Source: an uncultured Chloroflexia bacterium
Lineage (GTDB): Bacteria; Chloroflexota; Limnocylindria; Limnocylindrales; CSP1-4
Direction: 5' to 3'
NCBI GenBank assembly: GCA_963734535.1
Contig: CAVTHS010000006.1
Coordinates: 1-64,000 of the forward strand
Length of the DNA: 64,000 nucleotides
Shown here: piece after piece, positions 1,657-64,000 of the stretch
Position numbering within the stretch: position 1 is the stretch's first letter
How the letters are laid out: the number at the start of each line of letters is the position of its first letter
Translations under genes and position numbers: made by a program
Notes under the pieces: model-generated
The model's input: only the letters and a program-made list of their open reading frames with translations
What the model was told of the DNA's origin: nothing
The model's database searches: none

Positions 1657-2677
1657 CTACTCGTCTGCCACGAGCCCCAACGTGCTGAGCTTGCGCCAGA
1701 GCGTCGTGCGCGCGATGCCGAGGACGCGCGCCGCGTCGATTTGCGGGCCTTCGCAGGCGTCGAGCACGCGCGCGACGTGCTCGCGCTCGACGTCGGCGAG
1801 CGTGCATCGATCGTCGAATGGGCGCGCAGCTGGCGACGGGCTCACCACATCCTCGGGAGATCCTCGGCAATCGACGTCGGCACCCCGGCGAGCACGGCGC
1901 CGTGCTTCACCGCCTTTGCGAGCTCGCGCACGTTGCCGGGCCACGGGTGGGTTTCGAGGCCGCTCCTCGCGCGACGGTCGAGCTCCCGTGGTGACCTCCT
2001 TGTCCGGAAATGTCCGTGCGAGCGGCAGGACGTCCTCTCTCCGCTCTCGGAGCGGCGGAACGTCAGCGTGAGGACTTCTCAGTCGGTAGTAGAGGTCCTC
2101 GCGGAAGCGCCGCACGGCGATGCCGGCGCGCAAATCCTCGTGCGTCGCACACACGATTCGGACATCCACCAAGAACGCGTGGGTCTCACCCACGCGACGG
2201 ATCTCGCCGTCTTGCAGCGCACGCAGCAGCTTCGCCTGGAGCGCGAGCGGCATCTCGGCGATCTCGTCGAGCAGGAGCGTGCCGCCGTCGGCCGACTCGA
2301 GCATGCCGCGCTTCGGCGCTCCCGCGCCCGTGAACGCACCCTTCGCGTGACCGAACAACTCCGACTCGAGGAACTCGGCGGGCAGCGCCGCGACGTTCAT
2401 CGCCACGAACGGCTTGCTCGCCCGCGGGCTGTTGGCGTGCAGGGTCCGGGCGACGATCTCCTTGCCGGTGCCGGTCTCACCAGAAGATGACGGGCGCGTC
2501 GCTGGCCGCGATGGGCGCGGCTCGGAGCATCAGGGCGCGCATGGGCGCGCTCTCAGCCACCAGCTTCGAGCAGCGCCGCAAGCCCGGTGCCTCGGGAGCA
2601 AGGCGGCAAACGGCGCAAAGCCTGGGCGCTCGCTCGAAGGGAGCTTGGCAGGGCGGTGAGAGCGGCACTCGTTTCAT
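1657..2677 (-). CDS. sigma54-dependent enhancer-binding transcriptional activator (AAA+ and Fis HTH), several frameshifts
   Basis: GETGTGKE Walker A (after a shift at ~2481), ESELFGH, GAFTGA, LLDEI Walker [18 protein letters not shown] in an adjacent frame, and C-terminal [19 protein letters not shown]. Confidence 0.85.
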
Positions 2678-57700: not shown

Positions 57701-58626
57701 GCCAGGCGGACGTCCTCGTCTGCACCACCATCATCGAGTCCGGCCTGGACATCCCGAACGCGAACACGATCGTGATCGACCGCGCCGACACCCTGGGCCT
57801 CGCCCAGCTCTACCAGCTGCGCGGCCGCGTGGGACGGAGCTCGCGGCGCGCCTATGCCTACCTCCTCTACCGGCGCCGCGACCGGCTCTCCGACGAGGCG
57901 CGCAAGCGACTCCAGGCGATCTTCAACGCCTCGGAGCTTGGCGCGGGCTTCCAGATCGCGCTCTCCGACCTGGAGATCCGCGGCGCGGGCAACATCCTGG
58001 GCGGCGAGCAGTCGGGCCACATGGCGGCCGTCGGGTTCGACCTGTACACGAGGCTCCTCGCGGAGGCGGTCGAGGAACGCAAGGCGACCTGGGAGGGTCG
58101 TGCGCCGACGCTCGCCCCGGCGGGCGCCACGGTGGACCTGCCCGTCGACGCCCACCTCCCGGACGCCTACGTTCCCGACGAGGCGGCGAAGCTCGAGCTC
58201 TACCGGCGCCTGGCGCGCGCCCGGACCCGCGGGGATCTCGCCGCGTTCCGGCAGGAGGTTGCCGACCGCTTCGGGCCGCCGCCGCCAGCGGTGATCCGGC
58301 TCGTGGAGGTCGCGGAGCTGCGTCTCGCCGCGGAGGCCGCCGGGATCAGCTCGCTCGCTCGCGAGGAGGGCCAGCTGGTGGTCCGCTTCGGATCGGGCCT
58401 TTCGCGAGGCGAGGCGATGCGCCTCATCGCCGGCGCGCCGCTTCCCGGCGTGCGGCCGGGCGACATGACGTTCGCGGCGAGCCAGGTCCGTATCAGGATC
58501 CCGCGGGACGCTGCCCGGGCGTGGGTCCTGACCCAGGCCATCGTCACCCGCGTGGCCGCGGCGCGCGGACCCGACGGCGCGGATCAGGCGTCTCCTGCCG
58601 CCTCCTCGCCCCCCCGGAACCGGTAG
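54778..58626 (+). CDS. mfd: Transcription-repair coupling factor
   Basis: GEFARRGGLVDIF, GDLVVHVDHGIG, GDVGYGKTE, DEEQRFG, SATPIPRT, QLRGRVGRS, DLEIRGAGN, C-terminal TRCF domain. Start approximate. Confidence 0.97.
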   Translation: MSGRHPVAGGRSESGGRAAAVPGSGQAITTSGVPMRGVEPEDRGARRRIPDLAVLPPLLHGTAPFLALSGALGPGGSAPGPRGRHAAVTAVPHGAKTFLAAALALAGGERVCWIARDAEIGDRVAEELTAWLGDPAAVAVLEPRTALAYERSELVRDESAARVAALAAWRAGRARVLVASVQALLQPTLGGDDLPAAPRSIRVGDRQVQGALLAELLRLGYEPVIEVAGRGEFARRGGLVDIFAAGADLPVRIEFFGDEIDSLRRFDPADQRTVGPAEVVDLLPASEFLLPVSGMAGIRSRLGSLAGKLPERLGADLARFEGADEAGPATASGTRALEAGDAAEVWAAILCPASGIDHLPPDTLLVLDEPADVASAAQFLWEQAAERRRDLIAAGELPGEWPDAYVGPRDWKARLVRGRTLELTWEPGPVEAIGGGPATEDPFGWREPMLPPGRSASLPRAIERWRAGRSATVPIAEEEADDVRPAVPPGIVSSRHAPGAQRSPAPRIVLASDQAPRLSELLGQAGIPAGVTFHPAVAPPPGAVTLVGRSLNAGFAGGPDGLVLVTDRELFGAVRVRRPKALRRVVPRDILERLTPGDLVVHVDHGIGRYERMLRRGSDGGERDYLEIAFAGSDRIFVPVEQINRISRYAGAERPGLSKLGGGEWARTKARVRQAVSDLAEELLELYAARAAAEGHAFPSDTPWQQELEASFPYEETPDQQRAIVDVKADMEAGRPMDRVVVGDVGYGKTEVALRAAFKAIQDGRQVAVLVPTTILADQHMRTFAQRFAAFPITVRLLSRSVPPREQQATLAGLATGSVDLIVGTHRLLSKDVVIRDLGLLVVDEEQRFGVAAKERLKQLRREVDVLTLSATPIPRTLNLALVGVRDLSVIETPPEDRLPIQTRVAEASAGLVKDAVLRELDRGGQAFYVHNRVETIEAQADQLRRLLPGARIVVGHGQMDERQLEEVMRSFAGGQADVLVCTTIIESGLDIPNANTIVIDRADTLGLAQLYQLRGRVGRSSRRAYAYLLYRRRDRLSDEARKRLQAIFNASELGAGFQIALSDLEIRGAGNILGGEQSGHMAAVGFDLYTRLLAEAVEERKATWEGRAPTLAPAGATVDLPVDAHLPDAYVPDEAAKLELYRRLARARTRGDLAAFRQEVADRFGPPPPAVIRLVEVAELRLAAEAAGISSLAREEGQLVVRFGSGLSRGEAMRLIAGAPLPGVRPGDMTFAASQVRIRIPRDAARAWVLTQAIVTRVAAARGPDGADQASPAASSPPRNR

Positions 58627-59309
58627 CCCACGCCGTAGCTCGTGGCGATGAACCGGCGCGTCGGCGCGGCCTCGGCGAGCTTGGCCCGCAGGTTGCGCAT
58701 CGTCACCCGGAGCAGGTGGAGGTCGTCGCCGTAGCCCGGGCCCCAGACCGCGGTCAGCAGGTCGGTGTGGCCGACGACGGACTCCGGGCGCTCGGCGAGA
58801 TGGCGCAGGAGGCGGTACTCGGTTGGGGTGAGGTGGACCTCGCGGTCTCCGGCGGTCACCCGGTGATCCCGCCCGTCGATGACGAGGCCCGGGTGGCGGA
58901 GCTCGTCGCCCGCGATGGCCATGGCACGGGCGTTCGCGCGTCGGAGGACGGCTTCGATGCGCGCCATCAGCTCCGGGAAGCTGAGCGGCTTCGTCATGTA
59001 GTCGTCGGCGCCGGCGCCCAGGCCGCGGATCTTGTCCTGCTCGGCGTCCCGCGCGGTCACGAGGAGGATCGGGACAAGGCTCGTCGCCCGGATCCGCTCG
59101 ATCACCTGCCAGCCGTTCAGGCGCGGCAGGCTGAGGTCAAGCAGGACGAGGTCCGGCTCCTCGGCCTCGAAGCTGACGACCGCCTCGGCCCCGTCGTGCG
59201 CCACCCGCGGCCGCCAGCCGTGCCGCTCCACCCACAGCGCGAGGAGGTCCGCGAACTCCGGCTCATCCTCCACGATGAGGATGCGTGCCCCGGGCGGCGG
59301 GTCGGGCAT
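58584..59309 (-). CDS. OmpR/PhoB-family response regulator
   Basis: ILIVEDE, DLVLLDLSLP, GADDYMTKP, wHTH (LTPTEYRLL, GVGYRF). Confidence 0.93.
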   Translation of the reverse strand: MPDPPPGARILIVEDEPEFADLLALWVERHGWRPRVAHDGAEAVVSFEAEEPDLVLLDLSLPRLNGWQVIERIRATSLVPILLVTARDAEQDKIRGLGAGADDYMTKPLSFPELMARIEAVLRRANARAMAIAGDELRHPGLVIDGRDHRVTAGDREVHLTPTEYRLLRHLAERPESVVGHTDLLTAVWGPGYGDDLHLLRVTMRNLRAKLAEAAPTRRFIATSYGVGYRFRGGEEAAGDA

Positions 59310-60910
59310 CACTGGAGGACGGGGAGCCGGAACGAGATGGACATGCCGCGCCGGGTCGTGTCCAGTCGGATCCAGCCGCCGTGCGCCTCGACGAGCCGCC
59401 GGCAGACGTAGAGCCCCAGGCCGCTCCCCGGGATGCGCGACTCGCGCATCCGCCCGCCCCGGAAGAACCGGTCGAAGACCTGCGCCTTCTCTCCCGGGTC
59501 GATCCCCTCGCCGTCGTCGGCGAAGGTGACCACGACCGAGTCCGGGGGCAGGTGGCGCGCCCGGATCGTGATGGACGCCCCCGGGCCCGCGTACTTGTGG
59601 GTGTTCGCCGCCAGGTTCGCGAGGACCTGCCGGATGCGGCGGGCGTCCACGTCCACCTTCGGCAGCACCGGGACGTCGAGCGTGATGGCCGGAGCCCCGG
59701 CAAGCTCGCCATGCTCCGCGACGAACGCCTGCAGGAGGGCGCCGAGGTCCGTCGGCGCGCGATCGAGCTGGAGCTGGTCGCTCTCGAGCCGGGACACGTC
59801 GATCACCTCGTCGACGAGGGCCCCCAGCCGGTCGACGGCGTCCCCGATCCGCTCCAGGTGGTGCCGGCTCGTCGGGGCGTCGAGGCCCAGGTGCAGCAGG
59901 CTCTGGGAATGCCCGCTGATCAGGGCGAGGGGCGTCCGCAGCTCGTGCGAGATCGTGGCCACGAAGCTCGACTTGAGCGCGTCGAGCGCCCTCGTGACCC
60001 GCAGGTCGCGCAGGACCGCGACCGCGCCCGATGGGGAGCCTGTCATCCGCGCGTAGCTCGCCGCGACCGGGATCGGTGTTGCGTCCACGCCGCCGACCAC
60101 CTGCTCGCGGACCAGCGGCCGCCCGTGGGCCAGGACCTCCTGGAACGGGCACGTCCTCCCGCAGCCGCGGTTGCCGCCCCTCTCGGGCAGGCAGCCCAGG
60201 AACGCCTCGCAGGTCGCCCCGATCCCTTCGCGTTCGGCCGCCCCGACGAGCCGCGCCGCCGCGCCGTTGAGGCGCGTGATCCTCCCGTCCGAATCGACCG
60301 CGATGATCGCGTCGCTGGCGCCGTCGAGGATCGCGGCGAGCGTCGCCCGCTCCCGGAGGAGGGCGCCGCGCAGCTGCGCCGAGCGAAACGCGAGGGCGAG
60401 CTCGCGCCGGACGAGCCCGAGATAGCGGGCATGCCGGACGTCGAGCGCCTGGCCCGGCAGCGGCCGGATGGCAAGGTAGCCCAGCGCGACGCGCCCCTCC
60501 CCGCCGACTCCCAGGGCGCGGCTCTCCTCGAGCGGGACGCCGAACCAGCCGGCCCGGGCCGCCCAGCGACCGGCCGCCGTAGAGTCGGGGAACGAGGCGG
60601 GGAGCTCGGCTGGGTCGCCGGTTCCACCGACCGGATGCTGCCCAGCGGGTGGCAGCGAGGCGACCCGGTGGAGCGTCCGACGCGCGGGCGTCGCGAGCCA
60701 GAGCACCGCGTCGCCTGCGCCGCTCGTACGAGCGATCTCGGCGAGGACGGCCGGGGCCAGCTTCGCGAGGTCGTCGCCGGACGCCAGCAGCTGGCTCAGC
60801 TGGTACTGGGCAAACATCGCGTCGGCCTCTCGCTGGGCCTCGTCGAAGGTTCGCCGCCGCTCATCCTCCAGGCTGGCCACGCGCGCCCGGAGCACGTCCA
60901 GCTCGGTCAC
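59309..60910 (-). CDS. Soluble sensor histidine kinase (coiled-coil, GAF-like, PAS, HisKA, HATPase)
   Basis: No TM segment. PAS (ILDGASDAIIAVD..GRITRLNGAA), ISHELRTPL H-box, NLAANTHKY, DDGEGID, GSGLGL. Stop overlaps the regulator start. Confidence 0.9.
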   Translation of the reverse strand: MTELDVLRARVASLEDERRRTFDEAQREADAMFAQYQLSQLLASGDDLAKLAPAVLAEIARTSGAGDAVLWLATPARRTLHRVASLPPAGQHPVGGTGDPAELPASFPDSTAAGRWAARAGWFGVPLEESRALGVGGEGRVALGYLAIRPLPGQALDVRHARYLGLVRRELALAFRSAQLRGALLRERATLAAILDGASDAIIAVDSDGRITRLNGAAARLVGAAEREGIGATCEAFLGCLPERGGNRGCGRTCPFQEVLAHGRPLVREQVVGGVDATPIPVAASYARMTGSPSGAVAVLRDLRVTRALDALKSSFVATISHELRTPLALISGHSQSLLHLGLDAPTSRHHLERIGDAVDRLGALVDEVIDVSRLESDQLQLDRAPTDLGALLQAFVAEHGELAGAPAITLDVPVLPKVDVDARRIRQVLANLAANTHKYAGPGASITIRARHLPPDSVVVTFADDGEGIDPGEKAQVFDRFFRGGRMRESRIPGSGLGLYVCRRLVEAHGGWIRLDTTRRGMSISFRLPVLQ

Positions 60911-61632
60911 CGGCGCCTCAGGGACCGGCGGCCGCTCGTCCGCCCATCGAGCATCGAGCGGAACAGGAGGAAGCACGAGGTTGCGCCCGGATCTCGGTGG
61001 CCGCGTGAACGCTCGCCGAGGCGCAGGGCGAGGCCCCGCCGGGCGACCATGGGGATCGTGGCCCGGACGCCCGCCCGCGCGGCCCGCGCCGCGCGCACGA
61101 AGGCCTCGTCCGGCGGGATGCCGGCGGCCGATCCGGCCTGGAGCGCCCGCACCGCGGGCTCCAGCGCGTCGAGGATGGTCTTGTCGCCGAGTCGGCACCT
61201 GCCGCGACGGGCAAGGCCGGCCCGGCCCGCGTCCAGCGCGCGCGCGAGCGTGGGCAGGTCGACCGCGTGGCGGCCGTCGAGCGCGAATCCCGTCTCGATG
61301 AAAAGCGTCCCGTACAGGGGGCCGCTTGCCCCGCCGACGCTGGCAACCAGCGTGTGGCCGATGCGGCGAAGCAGGGCCCCGACGTCGAGCGGTCCGGCCG
61401 CCTCGGCCGGTGCTTCGTCCTGGAGCGCCCGGATCACCGCCTGCAGGCCCGTGCTCATGTTCGTGCCGTGGTCGCCGTCGCCGAGCGCCGCGTCGAGCCG
61501 GTCGAGCAGCGCCTCGTGGCGCGCGATGGTGACGGCAGCACGCCCGACGAAGGCGACGACGTCCTCGGCGGTGATCGCGACCGCGGAGGCGCCGGCACCC
61601 GCCGCGGCTCGGTCGGGTCGCCCTAGACTCAT
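60907..61632 (-). CDS. dhaL: DhaL paralogue (Dak2 domain) with altered GRASY loop
   Basis: LDAALGDGDHGTNM, GGASGPLYG, GDKTILDAL, GERSRGHRDPGA. The canonical KGRASY is replaced by RGLALR. Confidence 0.85.
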   Translation of the reverse strand: MSLGRPDRAAAGAGASAVAITAEDVVAFVGRAAVTIARHEALLDRLDAALGDGDHGTNMSTGLQAVIRALQDEAPAEAAGPLDVGALLRRIGHTLVASVGGASGPLYGTLFIETGFALDGRHAVDLPTLARALDAGRAGLARRGRCRLGDKTILDALEPAVRALQAGSAAGIPPDEAFVRAARAARAGVRATIPMVARRGLALRLGERSRGHRDPGATSCFLLFRSMLDGRTSGRRSLRRR

Positions 61633-61709
61633 GCAGCCAGAGTCTACCCTTCGCCACGAGCAGGTCCGCGGCGATCCGGGCGGACGCCGGACAGCTCGGG
61701 AGGTGTTCG

Positions 61710-62174
61710 ATGGTCGCGCTCGTCCTGGTGGGCCACAGCCCCGAGCTCCTGCACGGGCTCCGCGCGATGCTCGCCCAGGCCGCGGCCGGCGTCCCCGTCC
61801 GCGTGGCCGGCGGCACAGATAGTGGTGCGCTGGGGACCAGCGCGCCGCGGATCCTGCACGCGATGCGCTCCGCCCTTGCGGATGCCCCGGACGGAGCGAT
61901 CGTGCTGCTCGACCTCGGCAGCGCCGCGCTCGCCCTCGAGATGGCGCTCGATGAGCTCGAGCCGTCCGCACGTGCCCGTGTGCGGGTGAGTCGGGGCGCG
62001 ATCGTCGAGGGAGCCGTGCGAGCCGCCGTCGAGGCTGCCGGCGGCGGGTCGCTCGCGGCCGTGCTCGCGGCCTCGGAGACGCCGCCGGCCCGGGACAAGC
62101 TTCCCGAGGACTGGCCGGCGGACGGGGCGGCCCCCGGCACCCCGGGGGAGACCCCGGGTCGGCCGGCCCGGTGA
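61710..62174 (+). CDS. dhaM: Dihydroxyacetone kinase phosphoryl donor subunit (PTS EIIA-Man domain)
   Basis: LVLVGHS, AGGT...GTS, DLGSA, AIVEGA. GGAGGT RBS. Confidence 0.88.
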   Translation: MVALVLVGHSPELLHGLRAMLAQAAAGVPVRVAGGTDSGALGTSAPRILHAMRSALADAPDGAIVLLDLGSAALALEMALDELEPSARARVRVSRGAIVEGAVRAAVEAAGGGSLAAVLAASETPPARDKLPEDWPADGAAPGTPGETPGRPAR

Positions 62175-62816
62175 GCGGGGCGCTCGTCGTCGCCTGGCTC
62201 CGCCTCGCGGCATCTCGCGTCGCCGCGGAGCGCATGCGCCTGACCGACCTCGACGCCGCCGTCGGCGACGGGGACCACGGGATCAACCTGGATCGCGGCT
62301 TCGCTGCCATCGAGGCGCGGCTGGCAGCTGGCGACGTCCCGACGGAGGCTCCAGCCCCCATCCTCGCCCTCGCGGCCCGAACCATCACGGGCACCGTCGG
62401 TGGGGCCAGCGGCGCGCTGTACGGCCGCGCGCTGCTGCGGGCCGACTGCGGCGGTGGAGCTCTGGCCCGTCGGCGCGGGAATGTCGGTGGCCCAGGTCGC
62501 GGCCGCGCTGCGGGCCGCGGTGGAGGGGATCGCTACCCTCGGCCGGTCCCTGCCCGGGGAGAAGACGATGCTCGACGCGCTCGTCCCGGCGGTCGCCGCG
62601 CTCGAGGAAGCTGCGGTCTCCGGCCTGGGCCTCCCTGACTCCCTGCGCCGAGCGGCGGACGCGGCCGACGCCGGTGCCCGGGCGACGGTCCCGATGCTGG
62701 CCACGAAGGGTCGCGCAAGCTACCTGGGGGAGCGCTCGATCGGCCATCTCGACCCTGGCGCCGTCTCGAGCACGCTGCTCCTCCGGGCCCTCGCGGACGC
62801 CGCGAGAGGCGCCTGA
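62171..62816 (+). CDS. dhaL: Dihydroxyacetone kinase ADP-binding subunit DhaL, one frameshift (~62447)
   Basis: [23 protein letters not shown], then GEKTMLDAL and [19 protein letters not shown]. Confidence 0.9.
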
Positions 62817-62869
62817 CCCCCGCCGCGGGTCGGAGTCGTCGGCGCCCGCGGCACCCTCGGGGCCGCCCA

Positions 62870-62909
62870 CCCGCAACGTTCCCGCAACCTAGACGTTTCC
62901 TTGACGTTT
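62870..62909 (+). promoter_or_regulatory. 11-bp-period direct repeats upstream of glpF (putative OmpR-type operator)
   Basis: CCCGCAAC at 62870 and 62881, then CTAGACGTTT/CTTGACGTTT at 62889 and 62900. TACCGT -10-like hexamer at 62928. Confidence 0.5.
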
Positions 62910-63076
62910 TTCGCCATGCCGCGGGCGTACCGTTTCGGCAACAGTGCTCGAGGGCACTGTGGCGTCGGCGTGATCGGCCGCCACGCGACCCGGGCCGGGG
63001 TCGCGGTGGTGGCAGCGGAGGGATCGAGCGAGGTTCGCAGCCGGCGTGGGTGTCCAACCCAATAGAGGGAGTGAGC

Positions 63077-63811
63077 ATGAGCACGGAGAAATTCGTAGCG
63101 GAACTGATCGGGACCATGATCCTGATCCTGCTCGGTGACGGCGTCGTCGCTGGCGTCCTTCTGAACAAGTCCAAGGCGTTTGCGGGCGGCTGGATCGTCA
63201 TCACCCTGGCGTGGGGACTTGCCGTCTTCTCGGGCGTCGTGGTTTCGGGCCCCTACAGCGGCGCGCACCTGAACCCGGCGGTCACCCTCGGTCTCGCCAT
63301 CACCGGCGCGACCCCGTGGGACCAGGTTCCGATGTACCTCGTGGCCCAGTTCCTGGGCGCGTTCATCGGCGCGACGCTGGTCTTCCTGCATTACTACCCG
63401 CACTGGGCTGAGACCGAGGACCCGGGCCTCAAGCTCGCTGTCTTCTCGACTGGCCCGGCCATCCGCAGCCCGCTCTGGAACCTGATCTCGGAGATCATCG
63501 GGACGTTCGTCCTCGTCTTCGTGATCCTGACCTTCGGGAAGAACACCGCGAGCCTCGGCCCCTTGGCCGTTGCCCTCCTCGTCGTCGTGATCGGCCTCTC
63601 GCTCGGAGGTACGACCGGGTACGCGATCAACCCCGCCCGCGACCTCGGGCCGCGGATCATGCATGCGATCCTGCCGATCCCCGGCAAGGGAGGCAGCGAC
63701 TGGGAGTACGCGTGGATCCCCGTGGTCGGTCCGCTCATCGGCGGCGCGATTGCTGCGGTCTTCTGGGTTGCCCTCTACAAGGACTTCATCCTGAAGGCCT
63801 TGCCAAACTGA
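63077..63811 (+). CDS. glpF: MIP family glycerol/dihydroxyacetone uptake facilitator
   Basis: [28 protein letters not shown] (aquaglyceroporin NPARD). Confidence 0.95.
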
Positions 63812-63917
63812 GCCGCGCCAACCCGTTCGCGCCGGCGGCTTCGGCCCTGCCGCCGGCGCTCCGCACTCTCGTGAGCATCCCGAGCATCGGTTGGTTGACC
63901 CGCCATTGGAGGAGCGC

Positions 63918-64000
63918 ATGAAGAAGCTCATCAACACCCCGGAGCGCGAGGTCGACGAGGCGCTCGCCGGTATGGCAGCGGCCCACCCTGACCTGCTCCG
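63918..64000 (+). CDS. dhaK: Dihydroxyacetone kinase subunit DhaK (N-terminus, runs off window)
   Basis: GGAGGAG RBS, MKKLINTPEREVDEALAGMAAAHPDLL; dha gene context. Confidence 0.85.
   Translation, partial: MKKLINTPEREVDEALAGMAAAHPDLL

Follow-up and report, generated by a model that had tools for sequence, protein, structure and literature searches.

A diverged DhaL paralogue encoded with a GAF-PAS histidine kinase in Candidatus Limnocylindria: a conserved gene module and a candidate protein co-sensor

The first 64,000 nucleotides of contig CAVTHS010000006.1 from an uncultured Chloroflexia bacterium (assembly GCA_963734535.1; this whole stretch is called the window below) carry, on the minus strand, a unit of three genes that encode, in order of transcription, a paralogue of the dihydroxyacetone kinase subunit DhaL (here DhaL'), a histidine kinase with a GAF-PAS sensor region and an OmpR-type response regulator. 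The signalling module to which they belong, with a core formed by dhaM divergent from the genes for DhaL', kinase and regulator, is conserved throughout the class Candidatus Limnocylindria. The anatomy of the locus, its conservation, the separate clade formed by DhaL', the change of a motif within that clade, the folds of the proteins and the coupling of the genes are established here. By analogy with the DhaR-DhaL system of Escherichia coli, we propose, with a probability of about 0.5, that DhaL', charged by phosphorylated DhaM (DhaM~P), serves the kinase as a protein co-sensor.

Gene calls and domain scans give the following layout. The dhaL' gene (60907-61632, minus strand) encodes 241 amino acids with a Dak2 domain (2.3e-47); the kinase gene (59309-60910, minus strand) begins with GTG and encodes 533 amino acids, with PAS_4 at residues 195-304, HisKA at 313-377 and HATPase_c at 422-531; and the regulator gene (58584-59309, minus strand) encodes 241 amino acids of the OmpR/PhoB family (Response_reg, 5.8e-26; Trans_reg_C, 1.9e-20). 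The stop codon of dhaL' and the start codon of the kinase share the bases GTGA at 60907-60910, and the kinase stop and the regulator start share a single base, as TGATG, at 59309. The kinase is of the HisKA type, with the H box SHELRTP at residue 321, the N box at 430 and the G1 and G2 boxes at 465 and 495, and the regulator combines a receiver domain with a winged-helix output domain. Across a spacer of 77 nucleotides, dhaM diverges from dhaL' (61710-62174, plus strand; 154 amino acids, consisting of the EIIA-Man domain only; EIIA-man, 5.7e-15; TIGR02364, 3.1e-26); beyond it lie a second dhaL paralogue, dhaL2, the MIP-family glycerol facilitator gene glpF (63077-63811, plus strand; MIP, 4.7e-47) and the first 27 codons of dhaK (63918-64000, plus strand; TIGR02363, 6.9e-05 over 26 residues), which continues past the end of the window. 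The true start of glpF is likely the ATG at 63077, which is preceded by the Shine-Dalgarno sequence GAGGGAG. The original prediction, made from the letters of the window, had described this three-gene unit with both of its overlaps, its divergence from dhaM and the presence of glpF and dhaK beyond, all of which the gene calls and domain scans bear out.

The G+C content of the region is about 75%, and every real gene is overlapped by long spurious open reading frames, so that the apparent adjacency of the three genes might be thought an accident of one genome or an annotation artefact. There is practically no chance of this, and we regard it as refuted: all three proteins have strong family matches, and the arrangement recurs, far beyond chance, in about 70 genomes, each representing a species, among which kinase identity falls as low as 39%. 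The survey behind these numbers scanned one genome per species with an alignment of kinase sensor regions; it yielded 183 pattern matches and confirmed 78 of them, at 77 loci (cited below by their L numbers). Two loci, L076 (Leptospira) and L077 (Hylemonella), matched over only 45-56 PAS residues with no kinase match and were dropped; the titles of the 75 that were kept name Chloroflexota of some kind in 74 cases and Rokubacteria in one (L055). In a protein collection, 247 relatives of the kinase sensor region were found at E ≤ 1e-3, the few named ones being labelled Chloroflexi or Candidatus Limnocylindrales.

Among the 70 loci with at least 700 nucleotides upstream of the kinase, where the presence of dhaL' could be judged, it lies directly upstream in 66, or in 68 when L058 and L075, with fragmented kinase genes, are counted. 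The kinase is thus the gene partner of dhaL' in 68/70 loci, and dhaL' never adjoins dhaK. The regulator gene follows the kinase directly in 67/70 (it is missing in L039, L041 and L075), a divergent dhaM stands within 500 nucleotides of dhaL' in 62 of 62 loci, and in 62 of 67 the stop codon of dhaL' shares bases with a start codon of the kinase gene in its frame, 4 nucleotides in 55 loci and 1 nucleotide in 7. In the loci with a full 8 kb upstream (n = 52), glpF is present in all except one (51/52). The suggested neighbourhood search therefore finds the predicted triplet conserved next to dha genes. Of the two loci with the kinase but neither dhaL' nor dhaM, L039 (900-5800) shows only remnants, and in L045 (858-1621) about 760 nucleotides of apparently non-coding DNA separate glpF and the kinase gene.

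DhaL' is set apart from the other DhaL proteins of the same loci, DhaL2 (encoded after dhaM) and DhaL3 (encoded after dhaK), both by phylogeny and by sequence. For the phylogeny, 180 sequences taken from the loci, not counting 11 fragments that were set aside, were combined with the DhaL' of the window and E. coli DhaL to give 182 rows. All 69 DhaL' rows fall into one clade in the FastTree tree (support 100), and an IQ-TREE analysis under a mixture model, with 66 rows drawn from 23 loci and four long-branch rows left out, likewise places 24/24 DhaL' in one clade (Shimodaira-Hasegawa approximate likelihood-ratio test, SH-aLRT, 100; stem length 1.02); that DhaL' might form its own clade had been raised in the original prediction. 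DhaL2 is a single clade too (support 87), DhaL3 has the shortest branches, and the branching order of the three clades is not resolved by the trees. A column comparison of 69 DhaL', 52 DhaL2 and 56 DhaL3 sequences with E. coli DhaL then reveals a selective change. In E. coli numbering, DhaL' retains D30, D35, D37, H38, G77-G81, K128, T129 and D132, which comprise the Asp triad that binds magnesium, the His-Gly pair, the GGASG loop and the KT..D motif. The three aspartates and the GGxSG loop are invariant in the 69 DhaL', and the magnesium/nucleotide loop with D47, D52, D54 and H55 of the window protein (61468-61494, minus strand; E. coli D30, D35, D37 and H38) is invariant in all three clades. 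Two reports (PMC9136124, PMC10848957) describe the role of the Asp triad in proteins of the DhaL/FakA type.

What has changed is the GRASY segment (E. coli 177-181), in place of which DhaL' has GLALR at residues 200-204 (61021-61035, minus strand). At least 91% of DhaL' carry the fixed substitutions R178L, S180L and Y181R (L178 in 96%, L180 in 91%, R181 in 99%), whereas GRASY, with its R, S and Y, is invariant in E. coli DhaL and in the DhaLs of the other two clades (108 sequences from these loci); taking this segment as the mark of a working DhaL, DhaL' lacks it. Other changes in DhaL' are T27D (88%) and I33L, M130I and K176R (at least 97%), and at each of the positions changed in DhaL' at least 88% of the DhaL2 and of the DhaL3 sequences keep the E. 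coli residue. Conserved residues specific to DhaL' are R38, R45, R89, H93, E113, R143, C146 and C220, two of them cysteines (C146 and C220). An AlphaFold2 model of DhaL' (mean predicted local distance difference test, pLDDT, 83.3) has the eight-helix Dak2 fold, and in a Foldseek comparison with E. coli DhaL (3pnl_B/2btd) it aligns with a template modelling score of 0.91, a root mean square deviation of 1.8 Å and 36% identity. In the model the GLALR segment folds as a short helix at 201-209. E. coli DhaL has a ten-residue helical cap over the nucleotide that inserts into DhaK and DhaM, according to PMC9136124, and helix 201-209 may correspond to this cap. Since the DhaL fold and the magnesium/nucleotide site are kept, DhaL' is most likely still able to hold ADP, which DhaM~P would convert to ATP in a relay from enzyme I (EI) through HPr to DhaM. 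A paralogue of the subunit that binds ADP in a dihydroxyacetone kinase dependent on the phosphotransferase system (PTS), DhaL' has, at about even odds, been neofunctionalised.

The same retained site would also suit an additional catalytic isoform that is merely co-transcribed with a kinase sensing on its own, and the state of the other dhaL genes bears on this. The window's dhaL2 (62171-62816, plus strand) is frameshifted: the stretches that match Dak2 profile positions 2-84 and 95-195 are read in different frames, and compared with the intact genes of L003, L004, L005, L008 and L010 there is one extra base near 62446-62449, which is either a sequencing error or the sign of a recent pseudogene. 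With dhaL2 broken, a spare DhaL could be of use. In relatives, however, the genes beyond the point where the window ends run dhaK, dhaL3 (for example L005:3336-4025 and L074:3153-3887, both minus strand), glpK (FGGY kinase) and glpD (FAD oxidoreductase), with a second dhaM in some clades; because of this third dhaL behind dhaK, the locus has three DhaL paralogues, not two, as do most genomes of the class. The original prediction, of a dhaM-dhaL pair plus one extra DhaL, missed the frameshift in dhaL2 and the third dhaL, as well as the cysteine motif of the kinase described below. Both DhaL2 and DhaL3 retain all catalytic motifs, although some clades have only one of them; where the full 8 kb upstream are available (52 loci), two further DhaLs are found in 45, one in 3, none in 1 (L066), with fragmentation artefacts in the remaining 3. 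A catalytic isoform thus leaves several things unaccounted for: 45/52 loci already carry two intact DhaLs of catalytic type, the segment that is invariant in all of these is rewritten in DhaL', and dhaL' stands beside the kinase, with its stop/start overlap, and never beside dhaK. We consider it unlikely that DhaL' is no more than a further enzyme subunit.

The gene content of the deeper-branching clades connects DhaL' to the PTS. The DhaM encoded next to dhaL' has a histidine at positions 8-12 in 64/64 loci, and the dha arm of the locus includes ptsH in 8 loci and ptsI in 5. Because of these genes and the retained DhaM histidine, the dihydroxyacetone kinase of the class is of the phosphoenolpyruvate-dependent type. 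The loci with pts genes inside the dha locus (L066, and also L050, L053, L059-L062 and L071) belong to deep-branching clades. In L066 (4816-7109, minus strand), ptsI, ptsH and dhaM stand beside the genes for DhaL', kinase and regulator, and within 8 kb there is neither a dhaK nor a glpF nor any further dhaL; to judge from its genes, this locus encodes a complete phosphoryl chain that ends at DhaL', beside a two-component system. That dhaL' and the kinase are kept here with no dhaK nearby is a further point against a catalytic isoform. In L061 the alignment with E. coli DhaM runs uninterrupted through DhaM and HPr, and the two may be fused.

The kinase that accompanies DhaL' lacks transmembrane helices, with Kyte-Doolittle means over 19 residues that peak at 1.21, as expected of the soluble kinase that had been predicted. 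Its residues 1-190 have no Pfam match. An AlphaFold2 model of the sensor, covering the first 309 residues and built from a 48-sequence alignment (pLDDT 84.7), shows an N-terminal helix (residues 3-43) and an alpha/beta GAF-like domain (48-150), together encoded at 60431-60910 on the minus strand, followed by a linker helix (160-197) that leads into the PAS domain (201-302), in the segment of residues 161-304 (59999-60430, minus strand; PAS_4, 8e-08). The core, with the dimerization/phosphotransfer and catalytic ATP-binding domains, occupies residues 305-533 (59312-59998, minus strand; HisKA, 1.1e-15; HATPase_c, 3.8e-24). The model accordingly agrees with the predicted coiled-coil/GAF-like region plus PAS. 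Full-length proteins that the sensor profile matches more distantly have the architecture GAF-PAS-HisKA-HATPase, with a Pfam GAF domain, and the nearest feature-atlas clusters of the kinase N-terminus are GAF clusters (scores 0.92-0.94), which serve as a lead only. The N-terminal helix includes the near-invariant D30..FAQYQLSQLLA43 (nucleotides 60776-60838), which from its conservation is the best candidate for a docking surface on the kinase.

The order GAF, long helix, PAS, seen in the AlphaFold2 model, in Foldseek and in the distant GAF and PAS profile matches, is that of the sensing module of E. coli DhaR, for which DhaL::ADP is the co-activator and DhaK the co-repressor. A comparison of the kinase N-terminus with DhaR had been suggested, and in a Foldseek search of 350,542 PDB chains with the sensor model, the solved complexes DhaR(N)-DhaK and DhaR(N)-DhaL (4lry, 4lrx and 4lrz) appear at ranks 6, 8 and 11, with E-values of 3e-8 to 9e-8 and an alignment over 304 columns for 4lrz (4lrz_H). 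At the sequence level, a single marginal tblastn match connects DhaR 158-324 with the kinase of L053 (E 9e-5). The modelled architecture of the kinase sensor thus resembles the DhaR sensing module; membership of the two in one family is not established.

The divergence of DhaL' follows that of the kinase sensor. In a mirror-tree comparison of the 37 loci with all four proteins, the correlation with the kinase sensor is 0.943 for DhaL', 0.852 for DhaL2 and 0.794 for DhaL3; the partial correlation between kinase sensor and DhaL' given DhaL3 is 0.845, and the reverse is 0.225. This pattern fits co-evolution of DhaL' and the kinase, and speaks against a catalytic isoform, as the other DhaLs follow the sensor far less closely. 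It bears also on a third possibility, in which DhaL' would have the enzyme as its target instead of the kinase. It would then serve as a decoy or buffer, in competition with the catalytic DhaLs for DhaM~P or DhaK, and so throttle dihydroxyacetone kinase, as the first gene under control of the two-component system. Such a decoy could be expected to keep the nucleotide site and the DhaL fold, to have dhaM always adjacent (62/62) and, being the first gene of the kinase-regulator operon, to be autoregulated. What it leaves unexplained is the conserved 4-nucleotide overlap with the kinase start, the fact that the divergence of DhaL' follows that of the kinase sensor more closely than that of its paralogues, and the persistence of DhaL' in L066, with neither dhaK nor a catalytic dhaL nearby. 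As the sole role of DhaL' we find this quite improbable, though it is compatible with the co-sensor explanation and does not exclude it.

The mechanism that we propose starts from the known chemistry: phosphate travels by way of EI, HPr and DhaM to DhaL-bound ADP, and a catalytic DhaL hands it to dihydroxyacetone bound by DhaK. During phosphorylation of dihydroxyacetone, the catalytic DhaL3 and DhaL2 would drain DhaM~P, and this would shift DhaL' toward its ADP form. DhaL' itself would transfer phosphate poorly or not at all to DhaK-bound dihydroxyacetone, because its GRASY segment is rewritten; and because it could not, or could only poorly, hand phosphate on, its ADP/ATP state would mirror the drain on DhaM~P. 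The N-terminal helix/GAF region of the kinase would read this state, the kinase would set the phosphorylation of the OmpR-type regulator, and the regulator would act at the promoter of the glpF-dhaK-dhaL3-glpK-glpD genes. Since the dhaL' and kinase genes overlap stop-to-start, the two proteins would be made in fixed proportion, and DhaL' would probably report the activity of the pathway to the kinase. Four points of this scheme are inferences: that DhaL' is charged, that it binds the kinase, in which direction it acts and which genes the regulator targets. The original prediction of an extra DhaL as sensor or co-regulator of a two-component kinase is supported in part, as the comparisons of the triplet, the clade and the sensor fold came out in its favour. 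In its fullest form the proposal amounts to a new route from the PTS to a two-component system, in which DhaL', no longer at work in the enzyme, has its tightly held ADP converted to ATP by DhaM~P, the nucleotide state is read by the helix/GAF region, the kinase may add a metal or redox signal from its four-cysteine PAS domain, and flux through dihydroxyacetone kinase, rather than the level of a metabolite, sets transcription of the glycerol and dihydroxyacetone genes class-wide; this fuller version is tentative, and we would put it at somewhat less than an even chance.

Candidate control elements are found in two intergenic regions of the dha locus. Upstream of glpF, direct repeats with an 11-bp period (GCAAC twice and GACGTTT twice; 62873-62909, plus strand) provide candidate regulator boxes. 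The last GACGTTT overlaps a -35-like TTGACG, and a TANNNT-like TACCGT follows 21 nucleotides further on; GACGTTT-N4-GACGTTT occurs once in the 64-kb window, upstream of glpF only, against 0.12 occurrences expected. The repeats are conserved in the near clade and appear in degenerate form across clades. Their geometry suits an activator of the OmpR/PhoB type, making 62873-62909 a candidate regulator-dependent glpF promoter. Between this segment and glpF, an apparently structured leader of about 145 nucleotides (62934-63076, plus strand) is near-invariant in 9 loci. RNAalifold predicts 47 pairs, 3 of them with compensatory changes, in several hairpins and a long-range closing helix, and the leader is a candidate cis-regulatory RNA; a search of 58400-64000 against Rfam at E ≤ 1 matched no family apart from two chance microRNA matches, and distant clades have a longer, different glpF leader. 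In the dhaM/dhaL' spacer, a palindrome TAGACTC-N9-GAGTCTA (61624-61646) extends over the dhaL' start codon, with arms conserved and spacer variable in 11 near-clade sequences, and a conserved CCGCGGA lies 17 nucleotides upstream. Both may be promoter elements; by its sequence the palindrome probably represents two face-to-face TANNNT -10 boxes of divergent promoters, and dhaL' would therefore probably be leaderless; alternatively, the palindrome over the dhaL' ATG could be an operator.

Several observations weigh against DhaL' as the co-sensor of the kinase. The one that mainly holds our estimate to about 0.5 is a four-cysteine motif in the PAS domain, C234-x5-C240 ... C250-x3-C254-x-F (60149-60211, minus strand), of which C234, C240 and C254 never vary in the 48-sequence alignment and C250 is kept in at least 90% of it; the full motif is present in 52/57 intact kinases, with a variable spacer of 7-43 residues. 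Such conservation makes it a candidate metal site or Fe-S/redox site, and hence an independent input, and the GAF pocket, for its part, might bind a small molecule. The likeness to DhaR is shared with many sensors, as FixL, WalK, PpsR, DosP and bacteriophytochromes score like DhaR(N) in the Foldseek search; hhalign of the sensor with DhaR(N) gives a weak match (probability 21.7%, E 1e-3) over 99 columns that run from the end of the GAF through the linker helix into the PAS, and a profile search of PDB sequences with the sensor returned generic PAS matches only, and no DhaR. DhaL' itself scores 170.9 bits against the NCBIfam DhaL equivalog TIGR02365, for which the cut-off is 138.3, so that a catalytic role is conceivable. 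The mirror-tree correlation may arise from shared history alone, the kinase occurs without dhaL' or dhaM in L039 and L045, and the dhaM/dhaL' spacer shows no regulator box shared with the glpF promoter. Finally, no true DhaL'-kinase fusion could be upheld: the candidates P0092, P0241 and P0319 are all singletons and probably frameshift artefacts. P0092 (822 amino acids, with Dak2 and kinase domains) has its DhaL tail in an alternative frame, like the spurious long open reading frame of the window, P0241 originates from L075, a fragmented contig, and P0319 is a partial singleton. At least P0092 and P0241 are probably frameshift read-throughs of long-read assemblies, not real fusions. Apart from these, P0413 (343 amino acids) appears to join a Dak2 tail to a kinase N-terminus.

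Taken at face value, the cysteines, the equivalog score and the intact magnesium/nucleotide residues are what an enzymatic DhaL' next to a self-sensing kinase would look like. GAF and PAS domains bind ligands in their own right, as is illustrated by FixL and DosP among the top structural matches of the sensor. The GAF pocket could then receive dihydroxyacetone phosphate or glycerol-3-phosphate, while the PAS could respond to a metal, through an Fe-S cluster, or to redox state or oxygen; that the kinase relies on such inputs alone seems to us unlikely, in the same measure as the purely catalytic role with which it is coupled. Co-sensing by DhaL', the reading that we prefer, accommodates the pairing of its gene with that of the kinase, the loss of GRASY and the DhaR-like sensor, and leaves room for the cysteine motif as a second signal.

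Two features of the window stand apart from the proposed module. The 3' ends of mfd (plus strand) and of the regulator gene (minus strand) are convergent and overlap by 43 nucleotides (58584-58626), and mfd follows the regulator gene in 45/62 loci with at least 3 kb downstream. E. coli DhaR also has a tblastn match at 1660-2481 (minus strand; 27% identity, E 1e-21) to an AAA+ domain like that of sigma-54 activators, whose position gives it no connection with the dha locus.

Subunits of dihydroxyacetone kinase are textbook examples of enzymes that double as ligands of transcription factors, as with DhaR in E. coli and DhaS/DhaQ in Lactococcus. If the co-sensor role of DhaL' is true, a dedicated DhaL paralogue that works with a histidine kinase would be a third independent solution, making the logic of the enzyme subunit as sensor a general one, and a link from the PTS to two-component signalling would be added in a phylum where signalling is almost unstudied. 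Three DhaLs in one locus, one of them with a rewritten GRASY segment, would also constitute a natural experiment for telling catalytic from signalling surfaces apart, and because the components are small and soluble, the model is directly testable in vitro even though the organisms are uncultured.

The logic of this arrangement is already known from DhaR with DhaL and DhaK and from DhaS with DhaQ; the new part is the pairing of a DhaL paralogue with a histidine kinase. The original prediction knew of no earlier account of the architecture, and literature searches returned no paper that ties DhaL or Dak2 to a histidine kinase; a term search of a genomic-context study of the dha regulon (PMC4777399) found neither "two-component" nor "histidine kinase" in it. 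As in the E. coli DhaR system, where we checked the gene layout, the regulatory genes are divergent from dha genes, and a GAF-PAS region, which in DhaR reads a subunit of dihydroxyacetone kinase and not a small molecule, is proposed to do the same here. The differences are that DhaR is a one-component DNA-binding activator, whereas the present system consists of a HisKA/HATPase kinase and an OmpR-type regulator, and that the protein ligand in E. coli is the working DhaL, whereas here it would be a dedicated, diverged paralogue. In Lactococcus lactis, DhaQ co-activates DhaS, the regulator of the dha operon, as stated in PMC7590123. The proposed use of a dedicated paralogue of a dihydroxyacetone kinase subunit as a protein co-activator is common to both cases, but DhaQ is a paralogue of the substrate-binding DhaK and acts on a TetR-family regulator, in contrast to a DhaL paralogue and a two-component system.

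Histidine kinases that take their cue from a small signalling protein are represented by PII (GlnB) with NtrB, EIIA-Ntr with KdpD or PhoR, and PhoU with PhoR, in which that protein sets the balance between kinase and phosphatase activities. They share with the proposed system a cytoplasmic protein that binds a kinase and, by its ligand or modification state, reports on metabolism to it, and EIIA-Ntr is, in addition, a component of a PTS; the protein families are unrelated to those described here, and none of these systems is known to use a protein-bound ADP/ATP cofactor as the signal. With canonical DhaL (E. coli, 2btd/3pnl; L. lactis, 3cr3), DhaL' has in common the fold, the Asp triad and the glycine-rich loop, from which it is distinguished by GLALR in place of GRASY, by its clade-specific residues and by having a histidine kinase, instead of dhaK, as its gene partner.

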